Source: Omnitrophica bacterium GWA2_41_15 (lineage in GTDB: Bacteria; Omnitrophota; Gorgyraeia; Gygaellales; UBA12090). Taken from it: a stretch of 64,000 bases of DNA. Shown piece by piece: positions 3,950 to 61,484 of this stretch. The notes beneath the pieces were generated by a model, which was not told where the DNA came from, ran no database searches, and saw only the letters and a program-made list of their open reading frames with translations. The position numbers and the translations under genes were made by a program. Position 1 is the stretch's first letter, and every line of letters starts with the position of its first letter. Location: NCBI GenBank assembly GCA_919902675.1, contig CAKKRH010000016.1:8789-72788 (forward strand), in the 5' to 3' direction.

Positions 3950-3951
3950 CG

Positions 3952-9290: not shown

Positions 9291-9320
9291 GAATAAAATA
9301 GCGAAAAAGAGAGTTACGAC

Positions 9321-10425: not shown

Positions 10426-10452
10426 TCCATAGTAAGTTTGCATGGAGGACAG

Positions 10453-11175: not shown

Positions 11176-11180
11176 AGAAG

Positions 11181-11999
11181 ATGACCAAAGAGATAAAGAT
11201 AAAAGATATAAAGATCGGCGCGGGGAATCCTCTTGTGTTGATTGCCGGGCCTTGCGTGATTGAGAATAAAAAGTTGACTCTTGATACCGCTTGGGCTTTA
11301 AAGGATTTATGTCTGGAAATTGAAATTCCTTTTATCTTTAAGTCCAGCTATGATAAGGCTAACCGCACCTCTTTGGATTCCTACCGCGGCCCGGGCTTAA
11401 AAAAAGGTTTAGAGATACTGAAAGAAGTTAAAGAAAAATTAGGGCTTCCAATCTTAAGCGATGTGCATTGCCGGCAGGATTTAAGAGAAGCGGCTAAGGT
11501 TTTGGATATAATTCAGATTCCGGCATTTTTATCCCGCCAGACCGACCTTTTGACTGAGGTGGCGCGCACGGGAAAGGTGGTTAATATCAAAAAGGGCCAA
11601 TTCCTGGCTCCCTGGGATATGGCTCCTAGCATTAAAAAGATAGAATCAAGCGGTAATAAGAACATCCTGATTACCGAAAGAGGGATTAGTTTTGGCTATA
11701 ATAATCTGGTTTCGGATTTAAGGGCTTTAGCCATAATCCGGGATTTTGGTTATCCGGTGATTTATGATGCTACTCATAGCGTTCAGCTTCCCGGGGGAGG
11801 CGGCAGTTGTTCGGGCGGTGAGCGCCGTTTTGTCCCGGGCCTGTCCCGGGCGGCAGTGGCCTTTGGTTGTGACGGTTTATTCCTGGAGGTGCACCCTGAC
11901 CCTGATAAGGCCCTTTGTGACGGTCCGAATATGGTTTCCTTAAAAGAACTTAAAGCCTTGCTCAAGCAGGTTAAAAATATCGAGAGGGTGTTGAAATGA
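11181..11999 (+). CDS. kdsA: 2-dehydro-3-deoxyphosphooctonate aldolase (Kdo8P synthase), Cys-type (metal-dependent class)
   Basis: PFIFKSSYDKANRTS, IQIPAFLSRQTDL and YDATHSVQLPGG. AGPCVIEN has Cys where non-metallo enzymes have Asn. Confidence 0.9.
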   Translation: MTKEIKIKDIKIGAGNPLVLIAGPCVIENKKLTLDTAWALKDLCLEIEIPFIFKSSYDKANRTSLDSYRGPGLKKGLEILKEVKEKLGLPILSDVHCRQDLREAAKVLDIIQIPAFLSRQTDLLTEVARTGKVVNIKKGQFLAPWDMAPSIKKIESSGNKNILITERGISFGYNNLVSDLRALAIIRDFGYPVIYDATHSVQLPGGGGSCSGGERRFVPGLSRAAVAFGCDGLFLEVHPDPDKALCDGPNMVSLKELKALLKQVKNIERVLK

Positions 12000-12955
12000 T
12001 TCTTAAGCGGGCTAAAGAGGTTTTTAAAATAGAAGCTGAAGCGATAGCCAGCCTCTCTTCCAAGTTAGATGATAATTTCGTCCAGGCGGTAGAGGCGATT
12101 TATAATTGCCGGGGCCGGGTGGTGGTGAGCGGAATGGGTAAAACCGGAATCATCGGCCAGAAGATATCCGCGACCCTCTCTTCCTTGGGGACTCCCAGCA
12201 TTTGGCTGCATTCCGCGGAGGCCACGCACGGAGACTTGGGAAAGGTAACCAAGGATGATGTGGTGATTGTCCTTTCTAATAGCGGTGAAACCGAAGAGAC
12301 TAAAAATTTACTGCCCATACTAAAGAAGATCGGAGCCAGGATTATTGCCATTACCGGAAATAAAAATTCTACCTTAGCCAAATATTCGGATATAGTCCTG
12401 GATGTCTCGGTTAAAAAAGAGGCCTGCACCTTAGGGCTGGCCCCTACCTCATCCACCACCGCCGCCCTGGCCATGGGAGATGCCCTGGCCGTATGTTTGG
12501 TGGAGAAAAAAGGTTTTAAGGAAAAGGATTTTGCCTTATATCATCCCGGGGGGTTATTAGGAAAGAGGCTGCTTCTGAAAGTTGAGGATATTATGCGTAA
12601 AGGAAAAGCCAACCCTATTGTCAAGGAGGAGACCCTGGTCAAGGATGTGCTTTACGCTATTACCGGTTCCCGGGCCGGAGCGGCCTCGGTTGTAGATAAG
12701 TCGGGAAGGCTAAGCGGTATTTTTACCGACGGAGACCTGAGAAGGCATTTAGAGCGCAGCGCGGATTTAGCTTCGCGAAAAGTAAAAGAGGTTATGACTA
12801 AGAATCCTGTTACTATCCACCCGCGGCAATTAGCGGCCGAGGCCTTAAGGATCCTGGAAGAAAAAAAGATTGATGAACTTCCGGTGGTGGATGCGGCGCT
12901 TAAGCCGGTGGGTATGTTGGATATCCAGGATATCTTGCGGGCGGGGCTTGTATAG
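11996..12955 (+). CDS. kdsD: Arabinose-5-phosphate isomerase (SIS domain + tandem CBS)
   Basis: SIS block VVVSGMGKTGIIGQKISATLSSLGTPS and LSNSGETEE, with a C-terminal CBS pair. There is a 4-nt ATGA overlap with kdsA. Confidence 0.85.
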   Translation: MILKRAKEVFKIEAEAIASLSSKLDDNFVQAVEAIYNCRGRVVVSGMGKTGIIGQKISATLSSLGTPSIWLHSAEATHGDLGKVTKDDVVIVLSNSGETEETKNLLPILKKIGARIIAITGNKNSTLAKYSDIVLDVSVKKEACTLGLAPTSSTTAALAMGDALAVCLVEKKGFKEKDFALYHPGGLLGKRLLLKVEDIMRKGKANPIVKEETLVKDVLYAITGSRAGAASVVDKSGRLSGIFTDGDLRRHLERSADLASRKVKEVMTKNPVTIHPRQLAAEALRILEEKKIDELPVVDAALKPVGMLDIQDILRAGLV

Positions 12956-12987
12956 TCCATAGTCGATAGTTGATGGTCCATAGATTA
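12953..12987 (+). repeat. Direct array of 5 heptamers spanning the kdsD stop and the kdsC start region
   Basis: tagtcca tagtcga tagttga tggtcca tagatta. The first TAG is the kdsD stop codon. Confidence 0.8.
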
Positions 12988-13515
12988 AGAATGCGGGCAA
13001 ATATAGCAAATAAAATAAAAAAGGTTAAACTTTTGATTCTGGATGTGGATGGGGTGCTTACTGACGGCAGGATAATTTATGATTCTCAGGGCAGGGATTC
13101 CAAGTTTTTTGATGTTCATGACGGCTTGGGGGTGTATCTTTTAAAAAGGGTGGGGATTAAAACCATCCTGATTACCGCCAAAGGTTCAAAAACAATTAAA
13201 CCCAGAGCCAAAGATATGCGGGTTGAGGAGTTTTACGAAGACATTTTTCCTAAAACAAAAGTTTTGACTAAAATTCTTAAAAAACACCGGATAAAAACTG
13301 GGAATATCTGTTTTATCGGTGATGATTTGGTGGATTTAAGCATAATGAAGGCGGTGGGTTTTCCGGTGGCCGTGGCCAACGCCAGTAAGGACATTAAGGC
13401 CGCCTCAAGTTATATTACCCAAAAAAAAGGCGGCCGGGGCGCGGTCCGGGAGACGGCTGAGTTGATTTTAAAGACTCAAGGAAAATGGCAGGAAGCAATT
13501 AGCATATATCAATAG
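12970..13515 (+). CDS. kdsC: Kdo8P phosphatase (HAD superfamily)
   Basis: HAD motif I LILDVDGVLTDGRIIY and FIGDDLVDL. The true start may be ATG 12991 (MRANIANK), because the first codons lie in a heptamer repeat array. Confidence 0.8.
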   Translation: MMVHRLRMRANIANKIKKVKLLILDVDGVLTDGRIIYDSQGRDSKFFDVHDGLGVYLLKRVGIKTILITAKGSKTIKPRAKDMRVEEFYEDIFPKTKVLTKILKKHRIKTGNICFIGDDLVDLSIMKAVGFPVAVANASKDIKAASSYITQKKGGRGAVRETAELILKTQGKWQEAISIYQ

Positions 13516-13530
13516 AGCCGGCAAGCCAAA

Positions 13531-13669
13531 GCCATAAGCCAGAGGGCGATGGTTTGCGTTCCATATAAGCAAAGCCATAAGCCAGAGGGCGATGGTTTGC
13601 ATTCCATATAAGCAAAGCCATAAGCCAGAGGGCGATGGTTTGCATTCCATATAAGCAAAGCCATAAGCC
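13531..13669 (+). repeat. Tandem repeat, 43-bp unit x3.2, each unit self-complementary
   Basis: Units start at 13531, 13574, 13617 and 13660 (partial). The unit is gccataagccagagggcgatggtttgc(g/a)ttccatataagcaaa. The internal dyad is gcaaagccat…atggtttgc. Confidence 0.9.
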
Positions 13670-35380: not shown

Positions 35381-35408
35381 TTGACAAAAATTATTTATGT
35401 GGTATATT
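35381..35408 (+). promoter_or_regulatory. Sigma-70-type promoter with extended -10
   Basis: TTGACA, a 16-nt spacer, then TGgTATATT. It shares the 10-mer atgtggtata with the promoter at 57812. Confidence 0.55.
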
Positions 35409-35414
35409 TAAATT

Positions 35415-35483
35415 AAGAAATTTACAAGGTAGTAATACGCAAAGAGGCGTTTAGATGAGAAGTGCGATCTAAGCGCTTTTTTT
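35415..35483 (+). ncRNA. Candidate ~70-nt promoter-to-terminator transcript (sRNA or first module of the sigma-factor leader)
   Basis: It is bounded by the 35381 promoter and the 35447-35483 terminator. It contains SD-like AAAGAGG plus a 5-codon micro-ORF, ATG AGA AGT GCG ATC TAA (35455-35472), embedded in the terminator stem. Confidence 0.25.
35447..35483 (+). terminator. Rho-independent terminator-like hairpin + U7
   Basis: gcgtttagat / atctaagcgc (one G.U pair) is followed by ttttttt. Confidence 0.6.
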
Positions 35484-35557
35484 ATTGCAACCGCGCAAAT
35501 CGTAGAAAATCTAACAAGTCTTTTCTCGCGCGCCTTTAGCGGTTAGGGGATAAAGAA

Positions 35558-35608
35558 GTCCCAAATATAGCTAAGAAAGTAAAAGCTGTGTTTGGGATTT
35601 TTATTTTT
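35558..35608 (+). terminator. Terminator/attenuator-like hairpin + T-rich run immediately upstream of the sigma-factor ATG
   Basis: gtcccaaatatagct / agctgtgtttgggat is ~15 bp including G.U pairs. It is followed by ttttatttttaaaat and ATG 35614. Confidence 0.5.
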
Positions 35609-35613
35609 AAAAT

Positions 35614-36141
35614 ATGGATGCACAGGAATTTACAAAATTAGCCAACGAACTCAAGCCTCTCTTAAAGAGAATTTCCGCCAAGAGGAGATTCCTGGGCTTT
35701 ATAGATGACGACGACCTCTGTCAGGAGGCTTTGATAAATTTATGGAAACGTTCCAAGAATGGCGAATTTCAGGGTAAGACCGTGAGTTATATCATCCGCA
35801 GTTGTTATTTCCACATTCAAAACTATATCCGCACCCACAAGGTTAGGGCGGATATGCTTAGCCTGGAGGAGCCTGTGGCGTATAGTTCCGAGGATCCCTT
35901 CTGTCTTAAGGATATTGTGGTTGATGAAAGCGGATTTTTCTTTGATAAGCTTAACAGCCGTTTGATTGTTGATGAGATGATGAATAACGGGCTTAAAAAG
36001 AAGGAAAAAGATGTTTTGCGTTTTTTATATCAGGGGTTAAGCCTGAGAGAAACAGCCAGGCGCCTGGGCATGTCGCATGTGGGGGTCTTGAAAATCAAGA
36101 AAAAGATTAGCTTGAAATACGCCCAAAAGTATTACGGATAA
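35614..36141 (+). CDS. Small sigma-70 family (ECF-like) RNA polymerase sigma factor
   Basis: 175 aa. Region-2-like DDDLCQEALINLWKR, and region-4 HTH LSLRETARRLGMSHVGVLKIKKKI. Confidence 0.7.
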   Translation: MDAQEFTKLANELKPLLKRISAKRRFLGFIDDDDLCQEALINLWKRSKNGEFQGKTVSYIIRSCYFHIQNYIRTHKVRADMLSLEEPVAYSSEDPFCLKDIVVDESGFFFDKLNSRLIVDEMMNNGLKKKEKDVLRFLYQGLSLRETARRLGMSHVGVLKIKKKISLKYAQKYYG

Positions 36142-47525: not shown

Positions 47526-49208
47526 ATGGCTATCTTGAGACAGCAAATCATTAAGCTTTTAATCGAGCGTGGTGTATTTGACTTAATCGAAGTCGAGGAG
47601 GCCATTAGCCTTCAGAAAAGAGAAGGCCAAAAATTCAGCTCTTTATTGATTAAGCATGCCCCGGAAAAGAAAGACATCGCCATAGAGTTTATAAATCGGA
47701 TTATCAATCCTCCCGCTATTACCGTCTCTCAACTTGTCCAGCTAAAGATACCTCCTGATGTATTAAGGACAATAACTTTCGAAACAGCCAGCCGGTATCA
47801 TATCCTCCCAATCATAAAACAAGGCAATAGTCTTAATGTGGTTTTAGATGATCCTTTTACCATTCTTGATTTAGAGGATGTAAAGGAACTGCAGAATTAC
47901 GCCATAAACCCGATAATCTCACCTAAGGTGGAGTTTATGGGGCAGGTTGAGCTTCGTTATTCCCGGACATTGGATTCTTCTTTTGATTCTAAATTCCAGG
48001 ATATGGATGATATCCTAAGCGGCGTAGCTGAGACGTTAACGGTTTTACGCAAAGACTCCAAAGGTCCTGAAACGACACATATGAACCTGGAGGACGCCCC
48101 GGTTATCAAGGCGACCAATCTTATCCTGGAAAAGGCCGTTGAGGCCCGGGCCAGCGACATACTTATTGAACCGCTTAAAGACAATACCCGGGTGCGTTTT
48201 CGTCTGGATGGGATATTGCAGCAGTTTGAGGACTTGCCCAAGGAATTTCATCAGGCAATCATTTCGCGGATAAAAGTGATTTCCGGCCTGGATATAGCTG
48301 AGCGCAGGCTCCCTCAGGATGGACAGTTTAAGATTAAATTAAGGGGCCGGGAGGTGGAGTTCCGGGTTTCAACCCTTCCAGTGGTAGGAGGCGAGAAGGC
48401 CGTACTCAGGGTATTGGATAAGTCTTTAGGCATGCTCAATATCGATAAATGCGGGATAAGGGATGAATATCTTGAGCCGCTCAAAAAATCGGCCGCCTCT
48501 CCTTATGGGATGATCCTGATGTGCGGACCAACCTGTTCCGGGAAGACCTCGACATTATATTCCCTGTTAAATTATATCCATACCCCGGAGAAGAATACCG
48601 TTACGGTTGAAGACCCGGTGGAATATCAGATAAAAGGATTAAATCAAGTGTCGGTTAATTCCAAGACCGGGCTCACCTTTACCAAATGCCTGCGTTCGAT
48701 ACTCAGGCAGGATCCCGACATAATTATGATTGGAGAGATAAGGGATTTTGAAACCATGGACATCGCCATTAAGGCTGCCTTGACCGGGCATCTGGTCTTA
48801 AGCACCCTGCATACCACCACTGCCCCGGGTTCGGTGGTGCGCATGGTTGATATGGGGGTTCAGCCGTTTCTGATCAACGCCTCGGTAATAGCTGTCATCG
48901 CCCAGCGCCTGGCGCGCAAGATATGCGTTAACTGCAGACAGCCGGTTTCCGGCCAGCCGTATTTTATCGGGACAGGCTGCAGGGACTGTTTTCACACCGG
49001 CTATAGCGGAAGAACGGTTATTACCGAGATCTTGTATATGAACCCGGAAATCAGGGACGCGATAGCCTCCGAAGAGCTCGATGAGGATAAGATAAAAAAT
49101 ATTGCCCGGGAATACGGGATGAAGACCTTAAGAGAAGAGGGAGAATTCCTGGCCCGCCATGGAATAACCACCATGGAAGAGGTTTACAGGCTTACTCCTT
49201 CGGATTAG
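47526..49208 (+). CDS. PilB/GspE-family secretion ATPase, paralogue 1
   Basis: GspE-N-like N-terminus, Walker A GPTCSGKTST (Cys at the usual Gly), Asp box VEDPVEYQ, Walker B IIMIGEIRD, His box LTGHLVLSTLHT, and tetra-Cys CVNC…CRDC. Confidence 0.85.
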   Translation: MAILRQQIIKLLIERGVFDLIEVEEAISLQKREGQKFSSLLIKHAPEKKDIAIEFINRIINPPAITVSQLVQLKIPPDVLRTITFETASRYHILPIIKQGNSLNVVLDDPFTILDLEDVKELQNYAINPIISPKVEFMGQVELRYSRTLDSSFDSKFQDMDDILSGVAETLTVLRKDSKGPETTHMNLEDAPVIKATNLILEKAVEARASDILIEPLKDNTRVRFRLDGILQQFEDLPKEFHQAIISRIKVISGLDIAERRLPQDGQFKIKLRGREVEFRVSTLPVVGGEKAVLRVLDKSLGMLNIDKCGIRDEYLEPLKKSAASPYGMILMCGPTCSGKTSTLYSLLNYIHTPEKNTVTVEDPVEYQIKGLNQVSVNSKTGLTFTKCLRSILRQDPDIIMIGEIRDFETMDIAIKAALTGHLVLSTLHTTTAPGSVVRMVDMGVQPFLINASVIAVIAQRLARKICVNCRQPVSGQPYFIGTGCRDCFHTGYSGRTVITEILYMNPEIRDAIASEELDEDKIKNIAREYGMKTLREEGEFLARHGITTMEEVYRLTPSD

Positions 49209-49219
49209 CGAAATAGATA

Positions 49220-50917
49220 ATGTCTAATACCAAGATTAATCTAAGCAAGATCTTGATTGATTCGGGGAAAATGTCCCTGGAAGAGCTGGGCAAGGCCTTA
49301 TTGATCCAAAAGAATAGCGGCTTTGATCTTAAGAAAATCTTAATTAGCGAGGGCTTCCTTTCCGAGGATGAGCTTTTAGGTTTGATTTCTTACTATATGT
49401 ATGTGCCTTGTCTGGACCTTTTAAAGTTCAGGGTGGACCTTGAAGTGATTAAACTGCTTCCAGAAAATTTGGCGCGTAAATATCAGATTCTGCCTTTACA
49501 CAGGATAGGAGATATTGTTGTGGTGGCAACGGCAGAGCCTCTGGATGTGATTACTTTAGATAATCTGCGCTTGGCCTTTGTTTATGAAATCAGGCAGGTT
49601 TTGTGTAAGGAAGGCCAGATAACGCCTTGTATAGATAAATATTATTCCAGCGACCAGGCCCTTAATGAAATCTTGGAGACCGGAGGACTGGATATAGAGA
49701 AATTATCCCTGACTGGCGATTATCAATCGCAGGACATGCTTCAGGAAAGCCAGAAACAGCCGATTATTGAAGCGGTTAACCTTATAATCGGCGAGGCGAT
49801 AAAGAAAAGGGCCAGCGATATACATATCGAGGCCCTGGAGGAATCCATCCTGGTACGCTACCGCATTGATGGTATATTGCATGAGGCTTATGACCTGCCA
49901 AAAAAAAGCCAGATGGGTATTGTCGCCCGTCTTAAAATCCTTTCCGGGATGGATATAACCAAGTCTTATGTTCCCCAGGACGGCAGGTTTGATATGCTCT
50001 TTTCTGGCAACCGGGAGATAGATTTCCGTGTTTCGAGCCTGCCAACTATTTTCGGCGAGAAGTTTGTCTTGAGGATATTGGATAAGGTTAATTCCATCGT
50101 TAAATTGGAAAGCCTGGGTTTTTCGCCCAGGCAATTGGGATTATTGAGGGATGCGGCCTCCAAGGACCACGGGATGATCCTGATTACCGGCCCTACAGGA
50201 AGCGGAAAGACCACTACTCTGTATTCCCTGCTGGCTGAGATAACCACAATCCACAAGCATATCATCACTGTCGAGGATCCGGTGGAATATCAGATTGACG
50301 GGATTAGCCAGACCCAGGTTAAGCCTGAGATAGAGTTGACCTTTGCCGCGGTGCTCAGGGCTTTGCTTAGGCAGACTCCCGACGTGATTATGATCGGGGA
50401 GATACGCGACGGAGAAACCGCGGATATGGCCATCAAGTCTTCCCTGGTGGGCCAGCTTATTTTAAGCACTCTGCATACCAATGACGCGGTAGGGGCCTTT
50501 GCCAGGCTTAAAGACATGGGCATAGAGCGTTACCTGATAGCCTCTTCCTTGCTTTTGGTCTGTGCCCAGAGGCTTTGCCGCAAGATATGCCTTAACTGCA
50601 AAGAACAGCTTGAGTTTTTGCCCAAATCGATAATCAAGGAATTCGGACCGCGGATCGAAGGCAGGAAATTTTATTACGGTAAGGGATGCGGCGATTGTAA
50701 CAATACTGGATACAAGGGGAGGGTTGCCTTGCTTGAGGCCTTAAAGGTTGATGATGCCATAAAGAATATGATTATTAGGAAAACTTCTTTGGATAAAGTC
50801 AAGGAGTTCGCGCTTGAGGAGAAAAGGCTTATTACCTTAAGGGATGACGGCTTGGATAAGGCCTCAGGTGGAGTAACCACATTAGACGAGATATTGAGGG
50901 TAACGGCCAAGGAATAA
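49220..50917 (+). CDS. PilB/GspE-family secretion ATPase, paralogue 2
   Basis: Walker A GPTGSGKTTT, VEDPVEYQ, VIMIGEIRD, His box variant LVGQLILSTLHT, and tetra-Cys CLNC…CGDC. It starts 11 nt after paralogue 1. Confidence 0.85.
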   Translation: MSNTKINLSKILIDSGKMSLEELGKALLIQKNSGFDLKKILISEGFLSEDELLGLISYYMYVPCLDLLKFRVDLEVIKLLPENLARKYQILPLHRIGDIVVVATAEPLDVITLDNLRLAFVYEIRQVLCKEGQITPCIDKYYSSDQALNEILETGGLDIEKLSLTGDYQSQDMLQESQKQPIIEAVNLIIGEAIKKRASDIHIEALEESILVRYRIDGILHEAYDLPKKSQMGIVARLKILSGMDITKSYVPQDGRFDMLFSGNREIDFRVSSLPTIFGEKFVLRILDKVNSIVKLESLGFSPRQLGLLRDAASKDHGMILITGPTGSGKTTTLYSLLAEITTIHKHIITVEDPVEYQIDGISQTQVKPEIELTFAAVLRALLRQTPDVIMIGEIRDGETADMAIKSSLVGQLILSTLHTNDAVGAFARLKDMGIERYLIASSLLLVCAQRLCRKICLNCKEQLEFLPKSIIKEFGPRIEGRKFYYGKGCGDCNNTGYKGRVALLEALKVDDAIKNMIIRKTSLDKVKEFALEEKRLITLRDDGLDKASGGVTTLDEILRVTAKE

Positions 50918-50919
50918 AG

Positions 50920-53900
50920 ATGCAAGACGCGAATTTAATATACATTGACGAGTTGACCGATCTCTACAACAGGCGCTATTTATTCACCTACTTGCCCAAA
51001 GAATTGGAGATGGCCGAATCCCAGAAATACAATGTCTGGGTACTTATGCTGGATTTAGACGGATTCAAGGCCATAAACGACACCTACGGGCATCTCTGCG
51101 CGGATGAACTGCTTAAGGATATAGCTAAGATATTAAAGGATAATACAAAGTTTGAGGATAAAAAAATACGTTATGCCGGAGACGAGTTTACCATAGTCAT
51201 ATCCAATATCGACACCAAAGGCATCCCCGAGATAGCCAAAAGGCTGGTGGATAAGGTCAGTGCCTACAGATATAATGATCCCCGCTCCCAGAAGGAGATT
51301 GCCCTTACGGTCAGCCTGGGCATTGCCGGGTATCCTCAAGACGCCATAGAAGCCAGGAAATTAGTGGAGTTGGCGGATAAGGCTTTATATGTCTCAAAGC
51401 AGAAAGGCAAGAATTGTTTTTCCTCGGCTTCGGAAATAACCTCGGAGATGGTTTGGAAAAAGGATATTCTGGAAAGATTTCCTTGTCCTGTATTGGTGGG
51501 CAGGGAAAATGAATTTACCTCTCTGAAAAACTTTTTTAAGCTGACTTCCCAAACAAAAAAGGCGGATATCGTGTTTATCTCAGGGGAATTAGGCTCTGGC
51601 AAGAGCCGCATATTAGGTGAGTTCGGAAGATTCATATCCGCGGACAACAGCTTTATCTGCGCGCAAGCCAAATGCGCGGAGAAATATATGCTTGAGCCTT
51701 ATCGTATCCTGACCAATGTGTTGTATGGCTATTTTTCCAAGTTGGATAAGCTTCCTGAGGAACTTTTTGAAGGTTTTTCCAGGGATGAATTGTCGGTTTT
51801 ATTCAGCCTGCTTCCGGGCCTTGCCGATATGGCCGGGCTCGTCCAGGATAAGGACAAATCTCCCCATGATCCGCTTAAGCTCAGGGATTCATTAATTAAG
51901 CTGTTATCCAACCTATCATTAAAGAAATCCCCTTTAGCTATACTGCTGGATGATTTTCAGTATGTTGATGAGCAGACTATGGAATTATTATTATGTCTGG
52001 CGAAGAACAAAGGCCAGGCCGCGGTCTTGATTGTTTGTGCCTTTTCTTTAGCCGATGTATCGCAAGATATCGTTTTTAAGCCTGAGGCCTTTAGCGGTTG
52101 CGGTGAAGCCGTGATCTTGTCAAGTTTATCCGAAGAGGGGGTAAAAAATATGATATTGGCGATCTTTGCCGATATTTCGCTAACCGTTGATTTTTATGAT
52201 TTGATTTATAGGACAACTAAAGGCAACCCGCTCTTTGTGGAAGAGCTCTTGAAGCATATAGTGGAGAAGGAATATATATTCTATCAAAGAGGCCAGTGGA
52301 TGCAAAGAGACATTAAAGAGGCCGACCTTCCTAAGTCCATAGGGGATACTATTAAGGCCAGGCTGGAGATCTTAAGTCCGGAAATGAAGGATATGATCGC
52401 CAAGGCCGCGGCCATCGGCGGCAACTTTCAGATTGACCTCTTGCAGGGGATTGATAGCGAGGATAAGGGCTATGTTATGGATTTGGTGGGTTCAGCCAAG
52501 AAGATAGGCCTGATTTATGAAGCTGGCCCGGGAGGAGGCGATGAGTTCCGTTTTGCCACCGATGAAGTCCGGAAAATACTTTTTAAGGTTATCGGAGACA
52601 GCAATACCAAGCGCATATATTCCCGCTTAGGCCAGGCCGAAGAAAGGCTTAATTCGGACAATCTATCCAGGATAGCCGGCGAGCTTTATTATAATTTCAA
52701 GAAGGCCGAAGACTGGTCTAAGGCCGAGCATTACGCGAAGCTGGTTAAAGAAGGAAAAGGCGTATTTTATGACCAGGCCGTCAAGTACGCCCAGGATGTC
52801 CTGGAGGAAGCCAATATCAGTAAAATGCTTGCTCCTTTAAGCAAAGAGGCATTTTCACGAATGCCGGAGCTTATCCGTTCCATATATATAGCCGGAGTAA
52901 ACAGTACCCTGTATCCGGAAAACAGCCAGATCCGCGTTAAGTCCAACGAAGACGCCTATAATCTGCTGGTTAAGGCTTTATCGGAAACGGACCTATTGAA
53001 TATCGCCCGTATTGATAAGACTATAATCGTCAATAATAAAAAATTAGGCAAGGATATAAAGAACATATTCGTGGATTCTTTCAACTCGGCTTTAAGGAAT
53101 TTAAGCGTAGAAAGCGTATCTTTTCAAAAAGGGGTTAGTTTAGAGGAGCTTACAAAGTTCGTAAATCTGGTGAATTCCGCGGAAGAAAAAGAAGAGGGTT
53201 TCTTAAAGTGCCTGGAAAACTCAGGGGTGGTTAATATACGGGTAAATGAGGTAATCTACGACGTAGCTAAGAAGAAATCTAAGGAAAAGGAAGGGCTGGA
53301 AGATATCATGCTTATTGACTATCTTATGGGCAGGCTTCCGGGTAAGGGCAAGGCCGCGGACATGTCCGCGGCGGTAACGACTCACGCCGAAAAAATAGCT
53401 CAGGAGCTGGAGCGTTTAGGTGAACAGGCCGCCAATGCCGCCCCCGGCGTAGATAAGCAGGCGCTTAAGGCTGAAATTGTAGCCAAAAGCATTCAAAAAG
53501 TAGGGGGTAAGCTTTCCGCTAATGATGTAAATACGGACAAATATAAAGAGGGGTTGTCCAAAGCTATATTAGCTATGGAGCCAGCCTTGCGTTCGGATGT
53601 CTTGGCTAATCAGGCTGAAGACAAAGATGCCGATTCGGGTATAATTCAGGAGTTGGGGAGGGAATTGCCCGATGAGGTGATTATTGATGTCTTGAGTCGG
53701 CAGTATCTTAAAAAAGATATCGGCCTGGATAAAATGAAAAGGCTGGCGGAGCGTTTCTTGTTTAACCCGCAGAAGAAGAGCCGGATGGCTCCTGTTTTAA
53801 AGGAAAAGCTTACCGGTTTGGGGGCGTCCAAGGAGGAATGTGACTGGATTCTGGGCATTCAGGAGAGAGAGATTTCTTTGGACGCGAAGATGAAGAAGAT

Positions 53901-54900
53901 CATAGCCTTGCCGGCTAAGGAATTGGTCAGGGTGCTTCCGACATTAGAAATTGATTATGTGGTTAAAGAGTTCATGGTTCAGAAAGACGAGGCTCAGATT
54001 GAGGCGGTGATGGAGAGCCTGATCAGGGCCTTGGAACAAAAGCATCCCGACAACCACCTGCTCTCCGGATATCTGAAGAATATGCTGGATATATTCATCA
54101 AGAGCTCTCCCGACAAATTACTGCCTAAGTTCATATACCGCTTCTGTAAGATTTATCCTCAGCATAGGGAAATCCTGCCGGTGTTTCTGGCGGTTTTTGA
54201 CTCTTATTTAGACCGGCTTATCCGCACTTTCCTTTCAGCCGAAAGATTTGATTTAATGAGGGATTTGCTTGAAGTTTACGCGAGCGATCAGAAGGCTATT
54301 GAAGGCGTTTCGGGGATCATAAATTCCATATCTGACAAATTAATTGAAGAATTCGTCAGGCGCATGGACACCAAACTGGATCTGGGTGTGCTCACGGAAA
54401 TAGTCATCCTACTTAAAGATAAGGTGCTGGGTAAGCTGATAGATTCGGGATTATTCGAAGGAGGTGTGCCGGAAGGCAAGTATTTTGAGGCCTATCTGAG
54501 GAGGCGGGTAATCGCCAGAATTCTTGACTGTATGCCCAGCGAACTTGTGTTGAACATTTTTAAGAACAGGTTTATGTCCGTCAAGAGTTACCTGACGAAC
54601 AATTTGATTGAGATTATAGCCGCGATGGAAAGCGAAGATATCGCCGAGGCCCTTGAGCCTGTGCTTTCCGGTCCAGACCCCGCGGTGCGCCGCAAGGTAA
54701 TTTTCGTTTTAGGGAAAATGAAGTCTGGCAGAAGCGCCAGGTTGCTGTTAAAGATTTCCGGCGATAAAGATAAAGAGGCCGCGGGCCTGGCCTTACGGAC
54801 CCTTAAAGGCCGGGCTGATGAGGCGGCCAAACTGGTTATCAAGGCGGCCTTAGGAAGCAACAGCCTCATCCAGGCTTTGCGCGACGGATTATCGTCATGA
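50920..54900 (+). CDS. 1326-aa GGDEF (AGDEF variant) diguanylate-cyclase domain + AAA_16/STAND-like NTPase + long helical region + C-terminal HEAT repeats
   Basis: DELTDLYNRRYL…LDLDGFKAINDTYGH…IRYAGDEFTIVI, then VGRENEFTSL…IVFISGELGSGKSRILGEF (Walker A) and LAILLDDFQYVDEQT (Walker B), then a HEAT-like tail DPAVRRKVIFVLGKMKSGRSARLLL. It starts 2 nt after the pilB paralogue 2 stop. Confidence 0.7.
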   Translation: MQDANLIYIDELTDLYNRRYLFTYLPKELEMAESQKYNVWVLMLDLDGFKAINDTYGHLCADELLKDIAKILKDNTKFEDKKIRYAGDEFTIVISNIDTKGIPEIAKRLVDKVSAYRYNDPRSQKEIALTVSLGIAGYPQDAIEARKLVELADKALYVSKQKGKNCFSSASEITSEMVWKKDILERFPCPVLVGRENEFTSLKNFFKLTSQTKKADIVFISGELGSGKSRILGEFGRFISADNSFICAQAKCAEKYMLEPYRILTNVLYGYFSKLDKLPEELFEGFSRDELSVLFSLLPGLADMAGLVQDKDKSPHDPLKLRDSLIKLLSNLSLKKSPLAILLDDFQYVDEQTMELLLCLAKNKGQAAVLIVCAFSLADVSQDIVFKPEAFSGCGEAVILSSLSEEGVKNMILAIFADISLTVDFYDLIYRTTKGNPLFVEELLKHIVEKEYIFYQRGQWMQRDIKEADLPKSIGDTIKARLEILSPEMKDMIAKAAAIGGNFQIDLLQGIDSEDKGYVMDLVGSAKKIGLIYEAGPGGGDEFRFATDEVRKILFKVIGDSNTKRIYSRLGQAEERLNSDNLSRIAGELYYNFKKAEDWSKAEHYAKLVKEGKGVFYDQAVKYAQDVLEEANISKMLAPLSKEAFSRMPELIRSIYIAGVNSTLYPENSQIRVKSNEDAYNLLVKALSETDLLNIARIDKTIIVNNKKLGKDIKNIFVDSFNSALRNLSVESVSFQKGVSLEELTKFVNLVNSAEEKEEGFLKCLENSGVVNIRVNEVIYDVAKKKSKEKEGLEDIMLIDYLMGRLPGKGKAADMSAAVTTHAEKIAQELERLGEQAANAAPGVDKQALKAEIVAKSIQKVGGKLSANDVNTDKYKEGLSKAILAMEPALRSDVLANQAEDKDADSGIIQELGRELPDEVIIDVLSRQYLKKDIGLDKMKRLAERFLFNPQKKSRMAPVLKEKLTGLGASKEECDWILGIQEREISLDAKMKKIIALPAKELVRVLPTLEIDYVVKEFMVQKDEAQIEAVMESLIRALEQKHPDNHLLSGYLKNMLDIFIKSSPDKLLPKFIYRFCKIYPQHREILPVFLAVFDSYLDRLIRTFLSAERFDLMRDLLEVYASDQKAIEGVSGIINSISDKLIEEFVRRMDTKLDLGVLTEIVILLKDKVLGKLIDSGLFEGGVPEGKYFEAYLRRRVIARILDCMPSELVLNIFKNRFMSVKSYLTNNLIEIIAAMESEDIAEALEPVLSGPDPAVRRKVIFVLGKMKSGRSARLLLKISGDKDKEAAGLALRTLKGRADEAAKLVIKAALGSNSLIQALRDGLSS

Positions 54901-54942: not shown

Positions 54943-55404
54943 ATGGAAAAAGATTTTGTTTTTCAGCGAAAGATCCGCAAGGTAAACCTGATCGGCCAGG
55001 TCCTCTTAAAGAAAAACCTGATTAGCCAGGAGCAGTTGGAGGCGGGCCTGAATATTCAGAAAAGCGAGGGCGGATTATTGGGTAATATCTTGGTGGGTAA
55101 GGGTTTTTTGTCGGAGGAATCCTTTGCCATGGCCTTGTCCAGCCAGCTGGACTTAGCCTATATACCGATAGAAAAATACAACGTGTCCCGGGAGGCTATT
55201 AAGATGGTCCCCAGGAATTTGGCAGAGAAAAATTGTATTTTGCCAATAGAGAAGACCGGCAGCGTCTTGACCCTGTCTTGCGCTGACCCGCTTAACGTCA
55301 GGGCGATTGCCGAGGTGGAAGCAGTGGCTAATTGCCTGGCAGTCCCTCTTATCGGGACGCGTTCGGAAATAGAAAAGGCGATACATTCGCACTATTCAAG
55401 CTGA
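54943..55404 (+). CDS. Stand-alone GspE N-terminal (T2SSE_N / MshEN-like) domain protein
   Basis: 153 aa. Tandem 24-residue motifs LIGQVLLKKNLISQEQLEAGLNIQ and LLGNILVGKGFLSEESFAMALSSQ are separated by 5 aa (KSEGG). They are followed by …VPRNLAEKNCILPIEKTGSVLTLSCADPLN…, typical of the T2SSE_N fold. Confidence 0.65.
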   Translation: MEKDFVFQRKIRKVNLIGQVLLKKNLISQEQLEAGLNIQKSEGGLLGNILVGKGFLSEESFAMALSSQLDLAYIPIEKYNVSREAIKMVPRNLAEKNCILPIEKTGSVLTLSCADPLNVRAIAEVEAVANCLAVPLIGTRSEIEKAIHSHYSS

Positions 55405-56705: not shown

Positions 56706-57152
56706 ATGAAGAGTAAAGGATTTAGCCTTTTGGAGGTGATGTTTTCGGCTCTGGTAATGGTGGCCTTATTGGTTGGGGTTTTAAGCCTTTATATCAGTTG
56801 TCTTAATCTTCAGGAGACGGCGAAGAATTCCTCCCGGGCCTCTTTTCAGCTCAGCTCCATGATCGAAGAGATAAAAGGGACTAATTTTAATAATATAAAC
56901 GCGACATATAATAATCAAAGGCTTGACTTGGAGGGTTTAGACGGTGAGATGTTGGTAGAGGTTACCCCTAACGGCACAGACCTTCTGGAGGTGCGGGTTA
57001 TTGCCGGCTGGACCCAAAAAGGGGGAAGCGCTATTGGCGAATACGGGCCAAATCCGGATAATTCTAATCAGGTTGAGCTTTATGACGTGGATAACGATAC
57101 TGTTATAGAATCCCCTTATGAGCTAACCGCAGCCATAGCTAATATGAACTAA
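56706..57152 (+). CDS. Prepilin-type (N-methylation motif) pilin/pseudopilin
   Basis: MKSKG|FSLLEVMFSALVMVALLVGVL: a short basic leader, G-F cleavage site, and Glu at +5. Confidence 0.7.
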   Translation: MKSKGFSLLEVMFSALVMVALLVGVLSLYISCLNLQETAKNSSRASFQLSSMIEEIKGTNFNNINATYNNQRLDLEGLDGEMLVEVTPNGTDLLEVRVIAGWTQKGGSAIGEYGPNPDNSNQVELYDVDNDTVIESPYELTAAIANMN

Positions 57153-57154: not shown

Positions 57155-57766
57155 ATGATTATGAATATGCCGCAAATTACAAATCACGGCCTTACTCCGC
57201 TAGAAACCAATGATCCACCCGTAAGAAGCAAGAGGTTTCTATTGGGGTTTACCTTGGTTGAGGTGATGATAGTGGTAGTCATATTCAGTATTATATTTGG
57301 CGTTAGCTTTGATGTCCTGCTTAGCGGAAGAAGGAGTTTTGATGCTTCATCAATACGCTATGACATTCAAACAAATGCCGCGCTTGGCCTGAACAATATG
57401 GCCCGCGAGCTTAAGAATAGCGCCTCCTTGTATGTGGATGTGGATGTAGGCGGTGATTCTGTCAGGTTCCTGGTGCCGGTGGGTTATAGTCAAAGCGGCG
57501 ATATCATTTGGGGGGCCGACGGAGAGACTAACCACCGGATCCGCTATGAGGTTAATGGTCAGAATCAATTGGTGAGAGACAGGTTCGATGCCTCTGATTC
57601 TATTGTCAACGGGACCACCCGGATCCTGGCCAATTATGTGGATGATGTGGATTTTGACAGCCAGCCTAACGGCCTTATTATGAATATTACCACCTCCGAG
57701 CAAAATAAGGTTACCAAAGAATGGCTGGATGAGAATCTGTCTTCGACGATAACCTTTCGCAATTAA
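57155..57766 (+). CDS. Prepilin-type pseudopilin with unusually long leader
   Basis: …VRSKRFLLG|FTLVEVMIVVVIFSIIFG. The only in-frame ATGs are at 57155, 57161 and 57167, giving a 37-41-aa leader. Confidence 0.6.
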   Translation: MIMNMPQITNHGLTPLETNDPPVRSKRFLLGFTLVEVMIVVVIFSIIFGVSFDVLLSGRRSFDASSIRYDIQTNAALGLNNMARELKNSASLYVDVDVGGDSVRFLVPVGYSQSGDIIWGADGETNHRIRYEVNGQNQLVRDRFDASDSIVNGTTRILANYVDDVDFDSQPNGLIMNITTSEQNKVTKEWLDENLSSTITFRN

Positions 57767-57811
57767 GCCAAAAATTGGCAAATTGGAATTTTACACTATT
57801 GTCAGGCCACC

Positions 57812-57839
57812 TTGAAAATACCGCAAGATGTGGTATACT
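57812..57839 (+). promoter_or_regulatory. Sigma-70-type promoter with extended -10 upstream of the 1200-aa gene
   Basis: TTGAAA, a 16-nt spacer, then TGgTATACT. Confidence 0.5.
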
Positions 57840-57881
57840 TTAAGCAAAGATATAATAAGTAATTTTTAAACAATTACCCCG

Positions 57882-60800
57882 ATGAAAAAGAATCTTAGGC
57901 TAGGCAATCAGGGCTTTATCCTAATGACCACCCTTATGGTGGGCACGGTCCTGACCGTGCTCTCCGGGGCCTATTTTGCCTCTTCCTTAAGCCAGAGTAA
58001 TATCGCCAGAAGGCAGTTTGAGGCCAACCAAGAGTTTTACAGCGCCGAATCCGGGATTGCCTATGGTTATGTGGAGGCGCTAAGCGGGGGCACCTTGACG
58101 CATAAAATAATAAACTCGATAACCGGAGAGCTTGAGGGCGAACTTAAAGGCGATAGGCAGTTTTCCGCGGATGTCGTTGACATTGACGGCTCAGGAAATA
58201 TGGTTATCAAGAACAAGGCAGGCAGGGTTATTGCCAAGGGAAAAATATACGAAAAAGGCTCGGATACTATTATCCTGGTTCAGGCGGTTAACGCGGACGG
58301 AGAAGAAACAGGACCGATACACCGTTATGTGATAAGCCATAAATCACTGTATAAGTATTTTGAGTTTTATGACACCGGCACCTGTAATGCCGCCGGAAAT
58401 TGGAAGTGTTATGAATGGAGCCTTGGCTGGTCAGGGACGCATAAAGGTAAGCTGGTTGCGAATGCCAGCACGAGCCCCGAAACCTATTTTGCCGTAGGCA
58501 AGGTCCATGTCAACGGTAATATTTTATTAAATGTTGAGGATTTTGAAAGCCTTCCGGAGTTGAGCTGTTCCGGACAATTCCTTTATGGCAACAAAACTCA
58601 ATTTAGCGAACCGGCGTTATGGGATAACATAACTTGGAATAATACCAATAAAAGCCGCACTTATAACTACAATCAATCAAATTGCGCCAACTGTATGCTT
58701 GATGGCCTGGCACCTCTGAATCGCTATGAATATTCTCCTTATAACTTTGTCTATCCTTTAGAGTATGATAATTTGACTGTTACGGCCTCTCCGATTTCGG
58801 AAAGAAGCGGCACGGCCAGAGATTGGGCACACGAACCCGGAGTGCATATCTATGGTTATCAGGTAACCGATGACTGGCCCGATATAACCACTTACGGTAA
58901 CACGCATTTTTGGATGGATATTGATAAAAGCGGGGTTCTAACTTCAAGCGAAAGGCAATATATCCCTAAGATACTGCCTAGTTGCTCCGGCTGCGGTTAT
59001 GATTGGGATAAATATAGCGGTAATCTTAATGATAATTACGCGAGCTGGTTAAGGTTTGGTAGCGGGTCAACCACTTGCTCTGATTCCCAAGCGGTAAGAT
59101 TTGAGGTTACCAACAGTAGTTATCAATATGAAGCCTTAAGGTGGTTGGCGGATAAGGAAAGCGCCGCTAATCCCAATATCAGCAGCAGTAGCCCCAGCGA
59201 ATACAGCAGTGCCACAACCGCTAACTGGCTGACTACCGCGGCCACAACCGCAAGCAGTGTATCTGCGAACAGTCGGTGGGATTCTTATGAATACGACCGG
59301 GTAACCCTTTTGAGTATACTGAATGAAGGCAATGCCGCATCCGGCCTCAATCCCAATCAAGGCTCAGGGCTGAAGGACCAAAGCGAATACGGCCTTTATG
59401 TAATAGTTAAATATTATCTGGCGAATGGGAGCTTTCCTTCTGGAACAGACGCGGTTATACAAAATTGGGTTACGGATTCAGGTCGATTACCGGCTTTTGA
59501 CGGCGTGTCCGGCCTTTCTTTAAATGATTTTTTTGCCTGGTGGAAACAGCGCAGGCATCATCACGGATTTGACCTTTCTGACTGCTCCTCTGCCTCTTAT
59601 GACGGGAATTGGTGTTTTTCTAATGATAAAACAGCTCAGACCACCGATGGCTATGGCCGCGCTGTCCCGGCAGTCCCGGCCTGGGAGAGGATTTTCTGGG
59701 AGGCCTGGCTTAATTATTGGCCTCCTGTCCGGGGTAAAAACCATAATCAGGTTTATAGCCCTGCGGACAACCGCCACGCCATAAATCCAGAATGGTGGGA
59801 GGACCTGGTTTATGGAAATGACCGCCCGGTTTCTGGAACTACGGATACAGTATTATCCTTGACTCATCTTAATACCTATAACGAGCCTCAAGCGGGTGTA
59901 TTTTCCGCTTGGCTTAAGGATAGGGGTCTGCTTGATGAGTCTAATAATTATGCCGGCAGTATTATTAAGTTTGACGCTCCTATAAGCGGTTATCATGGCC
60001 ATGCTGATTGCCCAGGACACGGAGGAGAAATACTTGAGCCGTTGAGCATAAAGGAGGCCTATAAGCCTCTTGCCCAGAAGGCAGGGGGGCTTTTTATAGA
60101 GCAAACTGCCGCGGATGAATTTACCGTTTATTATAACGGTGCTAATGTAGCTGATGGAGCGAGTTTAAGCGCTTGCCTGTCCGCGCTAAACGCCGCCGGA
60201 GGAGGAGCCGCCTGGATATCGGCCCAGGAGTTTTATAACCCCTATACTATCACTAAAGGAGTTTATGATCCTGCGCTAAGAAATCAGGATGAGACCAATA
60301 GCTCCAAGACCGCGGTGTATATTAACCCTTGCGATGTATATAGTACACTTGCCTATCCTTATATAGTAGATAACAGCGCCAGCTCTTGCTCTAGCTCCAC
60401 TGCTATACCTCCGACAGTAAAGGCCATACAGATAGATATCTCGCTTATGCCTTTTATAGGCGATAGCGATGATGATCATGTTATTTATATAGATGCTCCA
60501 GGCTATGATGTTCGTTTAAAAAACGGGGCTAAATTGCCGAATAACTTTACTTTGGCTAGCCCTTATGATGTCTATGTCCAGGCCCAAAAAAAGAGCGAAA
60601 GCGAGATGTCTTCTTTGTCCGGAGTTAATATAAATTTCGACGGGGATGCCACGGTTAATGAGGCAGATGTTTACCGGGGGGTGTTTAATTATGAGATAGG
60701 AGATAAAACCAGAACGGATCAAGGCTTAGATGCTAATTTTAAACCGGCGGCAGTGATTACTAATTCCCGGGTTTATTTTCTTTCTTCGGAGTTTCTGGAT

Positions 60801-61484
60801 AGAAACACCGTTTTTCCTTTCAGCTATCAATATCCGGCCAATCCTTATAGCGTGAAGAATGATTATTTTCTGGAGACTTATTGTGATCCCGTATGGCCTA
60901 CTTCTTGCGGCGGCGTTTCCGGTTTTCCCGCGGAGCCAGACCCAGTCACTTGGAGCTGGGTCAGGACTAATCTTACTGATCAGCAGCAGGGATGCTTATT
61001 GGCTGCCGGAGAGTCCAGATATCAAAGCGTGCACGCGGCGGATATGGTAAATACGGTCGGGTTCGGACAGCTTTTTAATCTGGCTGTGGCCAGCCCTTTT
61101 GAGCCCTGGGGATACCGCCTGGAGCGCTGGGGAGGCAGTTCTTCTCCGCTATTTCTGGAGGGGGCGTTTCTTAAGATCGGTTTTTGGCGTAATGAGGACC
61201 TTAGTTATAAGTACACCCGTTACCATACCCGGCCTGATACCGTGGTGAACTGGTATGAGAGAGCCAGGGAGTCAATTACCAGCGGCCACGAATATATGGC
61301 GGATGACTTAAAAGTAGCAAATAATTCCGTCAGCAGCAGCGTGACTTATGAATATGAAGAGAGGTTCTGGATGCCTGGAGGCCAGCCTTCAGGGGATTTC
61401 CTGGCCAGCGGCTATGAGCAGAGATGGGATCAGTTAAGCGGAACGGATGAAAATTTTGATTACGATACTCTACCTGAGCTTTAG
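57882..61484 (+). CDS. 1200-aa PilX_N-like pilus-associated protein (putative tip/adhesin), otherwise uncharacterised
   Basis: The N-terminus GFILMTTLMVGTVLTVLSGAYFASS…RRQFEANQEFYSAESGIAYGY matches my recollection of the PilX N-terminal domain pattern. The rest is W/Y/N/S-rich with no motif I recognise. It has its own promoter-like element upstream. Confidence 0.45.
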   Translation: MKKNLRLGNQGFILMTTLMVGTVLTVLSGAYFASSLSQSNIARRQFEANQEFYSAESGIAYGYVEALSGGTLTHKIINSITGELEGELKGDRQFSADVVDIDGSGNMVIKNKAGRVIAKGKIYEKGSDTIILVQAVNADGEETGPIHRYVISHKSLYKYFEFYDTGTCNAAGNWKCYEWSLGWSGTHKGKLVANASTSPETYFAVGKVHVNGNILLNVEDFESLPELSCSGQFLYGNKTQFSEPALWDNITWNNTNKSRTYNYNQSNCANCMLDGLAPLNRYEYSPYNFVYPLEYDNLTVTASPISERSGTARDWAHEPGVHIYGYQVTDDWPDITTYGNTHFWMDIDKSGVLTSSERQYIPKILPSCSGCGYDWDKYSGNLNDNYASWLRFGSGSTTCSDSQAVRFEVTNSSYQYEALRWLADKESAANPNISSSSPSEYSSATTANWLTTAATTASSVSANSRWDSYEYDRVTLLSILNEGNAASGLNPNQGSGLKDQSEYGLYVIVKYYLANGSFPSGTDAVIQNWVTDSGRLPAFDGVSGLSLNDFFAWWKQRRHHHGFDLSDCSSASYDGNWCFSNDKTAQTTDGYGRAVPAVPAWERIFWEAWLNYWPPVRGKNHNQVYSPADNRHAINPEWWEDLVYGNDRPVSGTTDTVLSLTHLNTYNEPQAGVFSAWLKDRGLLDESNNYAGSIIKFDAPISGYHGHADCPGHGGEILEPLSIKEAYKPLAQKAGGLFIEQTAADEFTVYYNGANVADGASLSACLSALNAAGGGAAWISAQEFYNPYTITKGVYDPALRNQDETNSSKTAVYINPCDVYSTLAYPYIVDNSASSCSSSTAIPPTVKAIQIDISLMPFIGDSDDDHVIYIDAPGYDVRLKNGAKLPNNFTLASPYDVYVQAQKKSESEMSSLSGVNINFDGDATVNEADVYRGVFNYEIGDKTRTDQGLDANFKPAAVITNSRVYFLSSEFLDRNTVFPFSYQYPANPYSVKNDYFLETYCDPVWPTSCGGVSGFPAEPDPVTWSWVRTNLTDQQQGCLLAAGESRYQSVHAADMVNTVGFGQLFNLAVASPFEPWGYRLERWGGSSSPLFLEGAFLKIGFWRNEDLSYKYTRYHTRPDTVVNWYERARESITSGHEYMADDLKVANNSVSSSVTYEYEERFWMPGGQPSGDFLASGYEQRWDQLSGTDENFDYDTLPEL

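Follow-up and report, generated by a model that had tools for sequence, protein, structure and literature searches.

A 1200-residue Omnitrophota protein with a prepilin-type N-terminus and a giant extra domain as a candidate capping pilin of a type IVa-like pilus

Results

The window analysed here is a 64,000-nucleotide (nt) stretch of contig CAKKRH010000016.1 (assembly GCA_919902675.1, positions 8,789 to 72,788, forward strand) from Omnitrophica bacterium GWA2_41_15. We are concerned with a 1200-amino-acid (aa) open reading frame (ORF) with an ATG start (57882..61484, forward strand) that lies in a pilus-type gene cluster, downstream of two small prepilin genes. We think it likely that its product caps a type IVa-like pilus as the apical minor pilin, the counterpart of PilK/PilX and GspK. 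The large domain that follows the pilin-like part probably contacts surfaces or host cells, an adhesin function that we hold with less certainty than the capping role. An identical protein is deposited in GenBank as MEK6564443.1, ‘MAG: pilus assembly PilX N-terminal domain-containing protein [Candidatus Omnitrophota bacterium]’ (MAG, metagenome-assembled genome). A preliminary description made from the DNA alone had seen a PilX_N-like anchor and proposed a position at the pilus tip; both are supported by a prepilin signal without glutamate at position +5, by adjacency to two prepilins that do have Glu at +5 (hereafter Glu+5 prepilins) and by the synteny of the cluster.

The N-terminus carries a class III signal, in which a basic leader runs to a glycine and is followed by a hydrophobic helix. 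The context of the putative cleavage site is MKKNLRLGNQG/FILMTTLMVG, with Thr at +5, and aa 10-36 form the sole hydrophobic segment of the protein. In an alignment of 125 family members, position -1 is Gly for 103 of the 110 residues in that column and position -2 is Lys in 78; F, V, I or M occupies +1, and +3 is Leu in 103. At +5 the seven commonest residues are S, T, I, A, V, F and L, and Glu is not among them. What marks out the apical PilK/PilX/GspK subunit is a missing Glu at +5 (PMC13533445; bioRxiv 10.64898/2026.02.12.705559), and PilK homologues likewise lack it and occupy the apical position (PMC13533445). The motif QxFYxAExGIxYA...E...WxTH is conserved across the family. For the public version of the protein (P0001, 1186 aa) other gene callers chose Met15 as the start; we favour the 1200-aa start because a motif upstream of Met15, NxKG/[FVI]xLI, is kept in the family alignment. 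In Pfam the protein matches PilX_N (PF14341) alone, and the whole of this 51-position model is covered by the alignment (profile 1-51 with aa 10-60, E=0.0019, 18.5 bits).

The second line of evidence is the gene neighbourhood, which we compared across ten loci (L001 to L010). In nine of the ten, Glu+5 prepilins lie directly beside the big protein, in the order I-J-K or K-I-J. A pair of such prepilins (~131-150 aa and ~175-231 aa) is present in eight loci, and L010 has the smaller one only. In the window the cluster runs from two PilB/GspE-type ATPases through a GGDEF protein, an MshEN protein, PilC/GspF and the 148-aa, 203-aa and 1200-aa proteins to a convergent PilM and a secretin. The order from the ATPases to the big protein is the same in L004 and L005, in L003 two prepilins and the big protein are followed by convergent pilM, and in L001, L002 and L010 the big protein is found with PilM, PilO and a secretin. 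The scan of the cluster ORFs turned up no recognisable PilY1-type protein.

Moreover, the parts of the cluster diverge at different rates. Compared with L005, the big protein is 25-30% identical and the two prepilins 26-36%, against 66% for the ATPase, 57% for the secretin and 55% for PilC. Such faster divergence of the big protein and the prepilins is as expected for exposed parts of a tip. Several loci encode paralogous big proteins: L005 has two of 816 and 980 aa (7995-13564), L004 has one of 761 and one of at least 917 aa (7977-13185), and in L007 (6798-13598) big proteins of 944 and 956 aa flank two prepilins. This arrangement hints that the paralogues are interchangeable tip modules.

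A number of observations weigh against a capping pilin. The PilX_N score falls under the gathering score of that model (25.5 bits); only 3 of 54 diverse relatives match PilX_N at E≤0.01 (best 2.5e-4), and the family consensus reaches E=0.29. Models of GspK, PilY1, TadG and HpsA all gave no match, and neither did the Pfam family T2SSK with the 1200-aa protein. When the N-terminal profile was compared by hhalign with E. coli K-12 GspG to GspK, GspK received a probability of 24%, below GspI (35%) and GspJ (28%), even though its raw score of 29.2 was the best among the E. coli pseudopilins. Because these sequence tests did not single out GspK, the assignment to the capping class rests on motif and context, not on a family model. 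A mean-field coevolution analysis (125 sequences, affected by gap artefacts and noise) gave no support to docking of a C-terminal strand on the N-terminal sheet. Finally, a major pilin, a prepilin peptidase and a PilT gene are all missing from the window ORFs scanned, so the filament type is not fixed.

This last point bears on a type II secretion system, in which a short periplasmic pseudopilus would carry the protein as its GspK-like cap, and the large domain would be a piston head or a docking site for substrate or secretin instead of a surface adhesin. The window holds only three pseudopilin-like genes, with neither major pilin nor PilT; the order 148-203-1200 aa matches E. coli gspI-gspJ-gspK, both ATPases are of the long GspE/PilB type, and GspK itself has a large inserted domain (PMC6561018, PMC13533445). 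However, the platform gene is of PilM type (PilM_2 E=7.7e-51 versus T2SSL E=3.5e-6), and the related loci carry a PilM, PilO and secretin set as in type IVa pili, with no GspC, GspL or GspM recognised in them. Surveys also class the Omnitrophota clusters as type IVa pili (PMC10066038). Moreover, a domain of ~1000 aa whose insertions diverge rapidly and which has tandem paralogues is easier to reconcile with an exposed module for binding than with an internal piston. We therefore regard a pseudopilus cap as unlikely and a type IVa-like pilus as the better description.

The family and its large domain

The preliminary description had proposed a search for homologues and their genomic context, and this yielded a sizeable family together with the conserved pilus-cluster loci described above. 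When 1.84 billion representatives (50%-identity clusters) were searched exhaustively with a HMMER profile, 458 came up at E≤1e-3, mostly of 700-1100 aa; of these, 161 reach E≤1e-10 and 77 reach E≤1e-30. A word-indexed search strongly under-reports the family, giving the same 7 clusters with the single protein, with a 7-sequence alignment and with the 125-sequence alignment. All named members looked up are ‘hypothetical protein’ of Candidatus Omnitrophota. A scan of GTDB species genomes with the 7-sequence alignment found five Omnitrophota contigs and two MAGs labelled Planctomycetales/Planctomycetia, and a 45% identical relative, OGN54301.1, is filed as hypothetical under ‘Chlamydiae bacterium GWC2_50_10’. 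As far as sampled, the family is centred on Omnitrophota. One public protein, P0070 (213 aa, matching window positions ~59524-59800), is a frame-shifted chimera of two frames of the 1200-aa gene, which implies that public collections contain error-prone assemblies of this organism and that fragment counts are inflated by them.

Domain searches beyond the N-terminus were close to empty, and the earlier statement that the protein has no other recognisable domain holds. NCBIfam gave zero families at E≤1 for the 1200-aa protein, and a sequence search of the PDB gave no match. Among the 54 relatives, Dockerin_1 in two was the only Pfam family besides PilX_N, and HpsA (NCBIfam NF038301) was found once, weakly (E=0.0047). 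The family consensus matched ComGG weakly in NCBIfam (E=0.1) and nothing else, whilst the family profile matched only prepilin N-termini of geopilin among PDB sequences, also weakly (E=0.075). The Neisseria_PilC domain of Pfam is absent from the 1200-aa protein and from the 54 relatives. Verru_Chthon cassette proteins are an NCBIfam example of large proteins encoded in prepilin cassettes. No NCBIfam family of large prepilin-cassette proteins was found with the 1200-aa protein (E≤1) or with the family consensus, and Verru_Chthon cassette proteins C and D appeared as weak matches of the 203-aa prepilin only.

An AlphaFold2 model built on 75 family sequences has a mean predicted local distance difference test (pLDDT) of 79.9 and a predicted template modelling score of 0.81; the 7-sequence alignment gave an unusable model (pLDDT 34). 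The model begins with a 61-residue helix (aa 9-69, pLDDT 77-90), after which eight strands are predicted at aa 72-78, 83-89, 99-101, 107-110, 116-125, 128-136, 142-155 and 159-164 (pLDDT 86-93). This predicted arrangement is consistent with the layout of a pilin head. Within the W-x-T-H motif at its start, T73 and H74 are near-invariant in the family. The ~1000 residues beyond the head are modelled as mixed structure (~22% helix, ~20% strand). The family core amounts to ~655 residues of the 1200-aa protein and is spread from end to end, interrupted by ~300 residues of lineage-specific insertions. Its conserved motifs include SLYxYFxF, GxIHVNG, WDKYSG, NxEWWxD, LPxGGLTVVSPxNVYxKGxYN, WQPAAxIT..YTLS and YNxAI..LERW.

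One insertion holds the Ser/Thr/Ala-rich low-complexity stretch (~aa 430-466), which had been noticed before and is confined to the four closest relatives. At the other end of the protein, the C-terminal motif contains a short predicted strand (aa 1181-1185, pLDDT ~73-88), a candidate for an in-cis terminal strand. In capping pilins a terminal beta-strand, in cis or in trans, completes the pilin sheet (PMC13533445). Asp-rich loops resembling those of dockerins and EF-hands occur at aa 915-930 (NFDGDATVNEADVY, 60624-60671) and as DLDGDGKIND in the shorter relatives P0005/P0006; judged from the sequence, these are possible calcium sites, as in PilY1.

Foldseek with this model found nothing at E≤0.001 in the PDB or BFVD (best PDB E=0.52) and no propeller. 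No fold was assigned by this check, which the preliminary description had suggested, and its reading of the domain as one of unknown fold stands. Since the 2019 structure of ComZ, a tip pilin discussed below, should be in the PDB copy searched, the large domain is not a recognisable ComZ-type beta-solenoid at the sensitivity of Foldseek.

The same results bear on whether the protein enters a filament at all. It might instead be a bitopic inner-membrane or periplasmic protein with a prepilin-like N-terminus only, whose domain acts outside the filament as an enzyme on cell wall or polysaccharide or as a scaffold of the pilus machine. The sub-threshold PilX_N match, the lack of a significant pilin-head match in Foldseek and the presence of GH43 enzymes and rhamnogalacturonan lyases among the best non-significant Foldseek rows are in keeping with this, as is a richness in aromatic residues and Asn like that of carbohydrate-active proteins. 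However, every one of those rows lies at E≥0.5, and there are zero catalytic families in the 54 relatives. Conservation of Gly at -1 and Lys at -2, with Glu absent from the commonest residues at +5, would be hard to explain for a simple signal anchor, and the obligate pairing with two Glu+5 prepilins points to incorporation into a filament. Such a protein is, in our judgement, improbable, and a capping subunit accounts better for the N-terminus.

Relative to the 39 other ORFs of the window, the 1200-aa protein is enriched in W (3.9-fold), Y (2.2-fold), N (1.8-fold), S (1.6-fold) and T (1.6-fold) and depleted in Lys, Ile and Met. The enrichment in aromatic residues, Asn, Ser and Thr, together with few Lys and Ile, fits an extracellular binding protein. 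Of the residues named earlier as abundant (W, Y, N, S and C), all were borne out except Cys, which is not enriched (1.1-fold).

The preliminary description had left the choice between a pilus-tip adhesin and an effector. In the latter case the protein would be an effector or cargo of the neighbouring secretin system that is released from the cell, a notion to which the secretin-containing cluster, the promoter-like site of the gene and the suspicion that Omnitrophota are predators or parasites (PMC10066038) lend some appeal. Yet there is no cleavable Sec or Tat signal, and a prepilin-type helix of ~60 residues would keep the protein in the membrane or in the filament core. No toxin or enzyme domain was detected, and fixed adjacency to two minor prepilins would be unexpected for cargo. 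The tip part of the earlier proposal is thus upheld by the prepilin signal, the adjacency and the synteny; the adhesin function is held with less certainty, and the effector part is very improbable.

The neighbouring prepilins and the rest of the cluster

The coordinates of the features are collected in Table 1. The 148-aa prepilin has weak NCBIfam matches to ComGF, ComGE, PilV and XpsI. Its orthologues adjoin the big gene in L002, L003 and L005, and prepilins of ~135 aa are found in L001, L004, L007, L009 and L010. From its size, the gene order and Glu at +5 we infer that it is I-like. The 203-aa prepilin exceeds the cut-off of NCBIfam TIGR02532 and weakly matches GspJ, GspH and GspG; orthologues are present in L003, L004 and L005, and prepilins of ~175-231 aa stand by the big gene in 8 of 10 loci (not L006 or L010). 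Its size and place in the order suggest that it is J-like. PDB searches with both small prepilins returned N-terminal matches only and no assignment as I or J. As called, the 203-aa prepilin has a leader of 31 residues; its L003 orthologue also has a long one, and in the orthologues of L004 and L005 it is 5-7 residues. The leader may truly be of unusual length, or the start codon may have been miscalled.

Table 1. Features of the 1200-aa gene and its upstream region (window positions)
Feature	Positions	Strand	Evidence
Minor prepilin, 148 aa, KG/FSLLEV, Glu at +5; proposed PilV/GspI-like	56706..57152	+	Pfam N_methyl E=0.0018
Minor prepilin, 203 aa, G/FTLVEV, Glu at +5; proposed PilW/GspJ-like	57155..57766	+	Pfam N_methyl 23.6 bits (cut-off 21.2)
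Conserved block AAAATTGGCAAwTTrGmATTTyAC	57770..57796	+	Pairwise alignment with L003
Sigma-70-type promoter-like site, TTGAAA (57812-57817), 16-nt spacer, extended -10 TGgTATACT	57812..57839	+	Scan, conservation
AT-rich stretch after the -10; putative transcription start and 5' leader	57840..57881	+	Conserved with L003
1200-aa ORF; candidate capping-type (PilK/PilX/GspK-class) minor pilin with giant extra domain	57882..61484	+	ORF, GenBank identity, family profile
Predicted prepilin leader, aa 1-11, MKKNLRLGNQG, ending in Gly(-1)	57882..57914	+	Family alignment; cleavage predicted
Hydrophobic N-terminal helix alpha1, aa 12-69, Thr at +5, QxFYxAExGIxYA...E motif	57915..58088	+	Hydrophobicity, AlphaFold2, PilX_N
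Predicted antiparallel beta-sheet after alpha1, aa 72-164, with W-x-T-H (aa 71-74)	58095..58373	+	AlphaFold2, conservation
Large mixed alpha/beta region, aa 165-1152, fold unrecognised	58374..61337	+	Model, conservation, no domain match
Ser/Thr/Ala-rich low-complexity insertion, aa 426-474	59157..59303	+	Family occupancy <25%, pLDDT 49-60
C-terminal segment YExRF...PPGD...xWxE[ILV], aa 1153-1196	61338..61469	+	Column counts, model

Upstream of the prepilins, the two adjacent PilB/GspE-type ATPases (560 and 565 aa, 47526-50917) each have an MshEN N-domain. They are followed by a 1326-aa GGDEF-AAA_16(STAND)-HEAT protein (50920-54900) and a stand-alone 153-aa MshEN protein (54943-55404), whose genes are syntenic in L001, L004, L005 and L010. 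The GGDEF protein and the free MshEN suggest a dedicated cyclic di-GMP (c-di-GMP) module for the pilus, with a synthase and a receptor domain, besides the MshEN domains of the ATPases. Downstream, the stop of the 1200-aa gene overlaps the stop of the convergent pilM by 4 nt (61481-61484), with no terminator-like site between them; the same tail-to-tail abutment of big gene and pilM is found in L003.

In L002 two prepilins are followed by a 429-aa protein (3750-5039) that has an N-terminus without Glu at +5 and matches Pfam DUF4900 (E=2.1e-7). A DUF4900-like motif was suspected in the big protein but not supported: hhalign against this 429-aa protein aligns the N-terminal helix only (69% probability).

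The upstream region

A gap of 115 nt (57767-57881) separates the end of the 203-aa prepilin gene (57766) from the 1200-aa ORF. The preliminary description had placed the ORF after such a gap, with a TTGAAA-16-TGgTATACT site in it, and the coordinates agree on both counts. A promoter scan gave 20 sites in 7.8 kb compared with 13.0 ± 3.1 in shuffled sequences, which tells against reading much into a match; the site carries weight because it is conserved in related loci, not because of the match alone. In L003, whose big protein is 45% identical, the gap is 111 nt and is 69% identical to that of the window, as high as the flanking coding DNA, and it holds TTGAAG-17-TGgTATACT. The stretch from the extended -10 downstream, TGGTATACTTTAAGC-ArGATATAATrAkTAATTTTT, is near-identical in L003. 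L004 and L005 share the extended -10; in both, a gap (63-81 nt) precedes the big gene, and the other cluster genes abut or overlap. Conservation of the motif in these three loci supports the earlier claim that the gene is separately promoted, and we regard an internal promoter as well supported but not proven. Since no terminator-like site was found between the prepilins and the 1200-aa gene, read-through transcription is also possible.

The conserved block at the start of the gap is overlapped by a second promoter-like site, TTGGCA-16-TATTGT (57775-57802), and the block may be an operator, an UP element or a second promoter. There is no Shine-Dalgarno match in the stretch after the -10. Given the GGDEF gene of the cluster, a c-di-GMP riboswitch or structured leader was considered and rejected: no Rfam family matched, and the folding z-score of 0.13 is like that of shuffled sequences.

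As had been noted before, the site shares a 10-mer, ATGTGGTATA, with a promoter at 35381. The 10-mer occurs exactly twice in the window (35397 and 57828), where ~0.04 occurrences are expected, and two copies were seen in 0 of 100 shuffles. Both copies lie within the extended -10 of a TTGAnA-16-TGgTATAyT site. Downstream of the site at 35381, TTGACA-16-TGgTATATT, come a ~205-nt leader and then a gene whose 175-aa product weakly matches Sigma70_r2 and r4 (35381-36141). A specific regulatory link between the two was rejected in favour of a simpler account, in which each is a strong promoter of the extended -10 type; the window has 5 occurrences of TGGTATAYT.

Discussion

We have described a 1200-aa protein of Omnitrophota that, in our view, probably caps a type IVa-like pilus. 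It shares with PilK/PilX of the type IVa pilus and GspK/XcpX of type II secretion the Gly at -1, the missing Glu at +5, the encoding together with two smaller Glu+5 prepilins in a gspI-gspJ-gspK-like order and, in the predicted model, the long helix followed by a beta-sheet. It differs in being four to six times larger than PilX/GspK: PilX proteins have ~200 aa and E. coli GspK 327. Moreover, its extra region lies beyond the head, whereas that of GspK is alpha-helical and inserted midway in the sheet (PMC6561018).

Enlarged tip pilins have been described elsewhere. ComZ of Thermus thermophilus is a GspK-like tip pilin with an inserted triangular beta-solenoid of ~380 aa that binds DNA (PMC6561018). 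Like the 1200-aa protein it combines a GspK-like framework and a bulky domain that fits only at the tip with a neighbouring minor pilin partner; in contrast, the extra region here is of ~1000 residues and mixed alpha/beta, without sequence similarity to ComZ. The cyanobacterial PilX/HpsA-like proteins (PilX-EPS subfamily) are also enlarged, some exceeding 1280 aa, and have been proposed to replace PilY1: they occur in organisms without PilY1, are proposed to serve as tip plug and adhesin, and strictly co-occur with a partner PilV (bioRxiv 10.64898/2026.02.12.705559). They belong to another phylum, however; the 1200-aa protein has no HpsA match, and a beta-solenoid is not evident in it.

Two further comparisons are instructive. 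CpaL/TadG of Tad pili likewise combine an N-terminal minor-pilin-like domain and a large middle with a conserved extreme C-terminal strand, and in CpaL the adhesin domain lies between the pilin domain and the terminal strand (PMC13533445). In contrast, the cluster here is type IVa-like (PilM, secretin, PilB, PilC), and there is no Tad or TadE Pfam match. PilY1/PilC is of a similar size class (~1000-1500 aa), is encoded by minor pilins and has the same proposed role as plug and adhesin. PilY1 proteins, for which sizes of ~1500 aa and up to 3500 aa are cited, have a Sec signal and a C-terminal beta-propeller and dock in trans onto PilK (PMC13533445). The 1200-aa protein differs from PilY1/PilC in having its own prepilin helix and no match to a PilY1/PilC model or to anything propeller-like.

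We propose the following mechanism. The N-terminal hydrophobic helix would insert the protein into the inner membrane, and prepilin peptidase would probably cleave it after Gly11. Because there is no Glu at +5, only the very top of the filament would be open to it. A trimer with the 148-aa (I/V-like) and 203-aa (J/W-like) prepilins may prime filament assembly, and the growing pilus would push the protein out through the secretin. At the tip, the ~1000-residue domain would act as the plug in place of a separate PilY1/PilC and would most likely mediate attachment to a surface, a polysaccharide or a host cell. The internal sigma-70-type promoter would allow the level of this subunit to be set independently of the upstream machinery genes.

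The enlarged capping pilin is already known as a kind of protein, and the GenBank label already records a PilX_N domain. What is new is a sizeable family with a core of ~650 residues that has no domain model or fold match, its fixed coupling to two minor prepilins and a conserved internal promoter. More tentatively, and with considerable doubt, we suggest that the Omnitrophota, which are ultra-small and probably host-dependent, might have merged a capping pilin and a PilY1-type adhesin into one giant subunit, with a core without solved relative and with insertions and paralogues that set partner specificity.

No member of the Omnitrophota has been isolated in pure culture. Nearly all of them have type IVa pili, which have been proposed to serve host attachment and are the main candidate for the attachment of these tiny cells to partners or prey (PMC10066038). 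If the protein is indeed the tip subunit, the family would be the molecule that touches the target, and it would offer a handle for predicting specificity, for antibodies or probes in enrichment cultures and for comparison between lineages. It would also be a third, structurally distinct capping pilin that has taken over the role of PilY1, after ComZ and the cyanobacterial PilX/HpsA.

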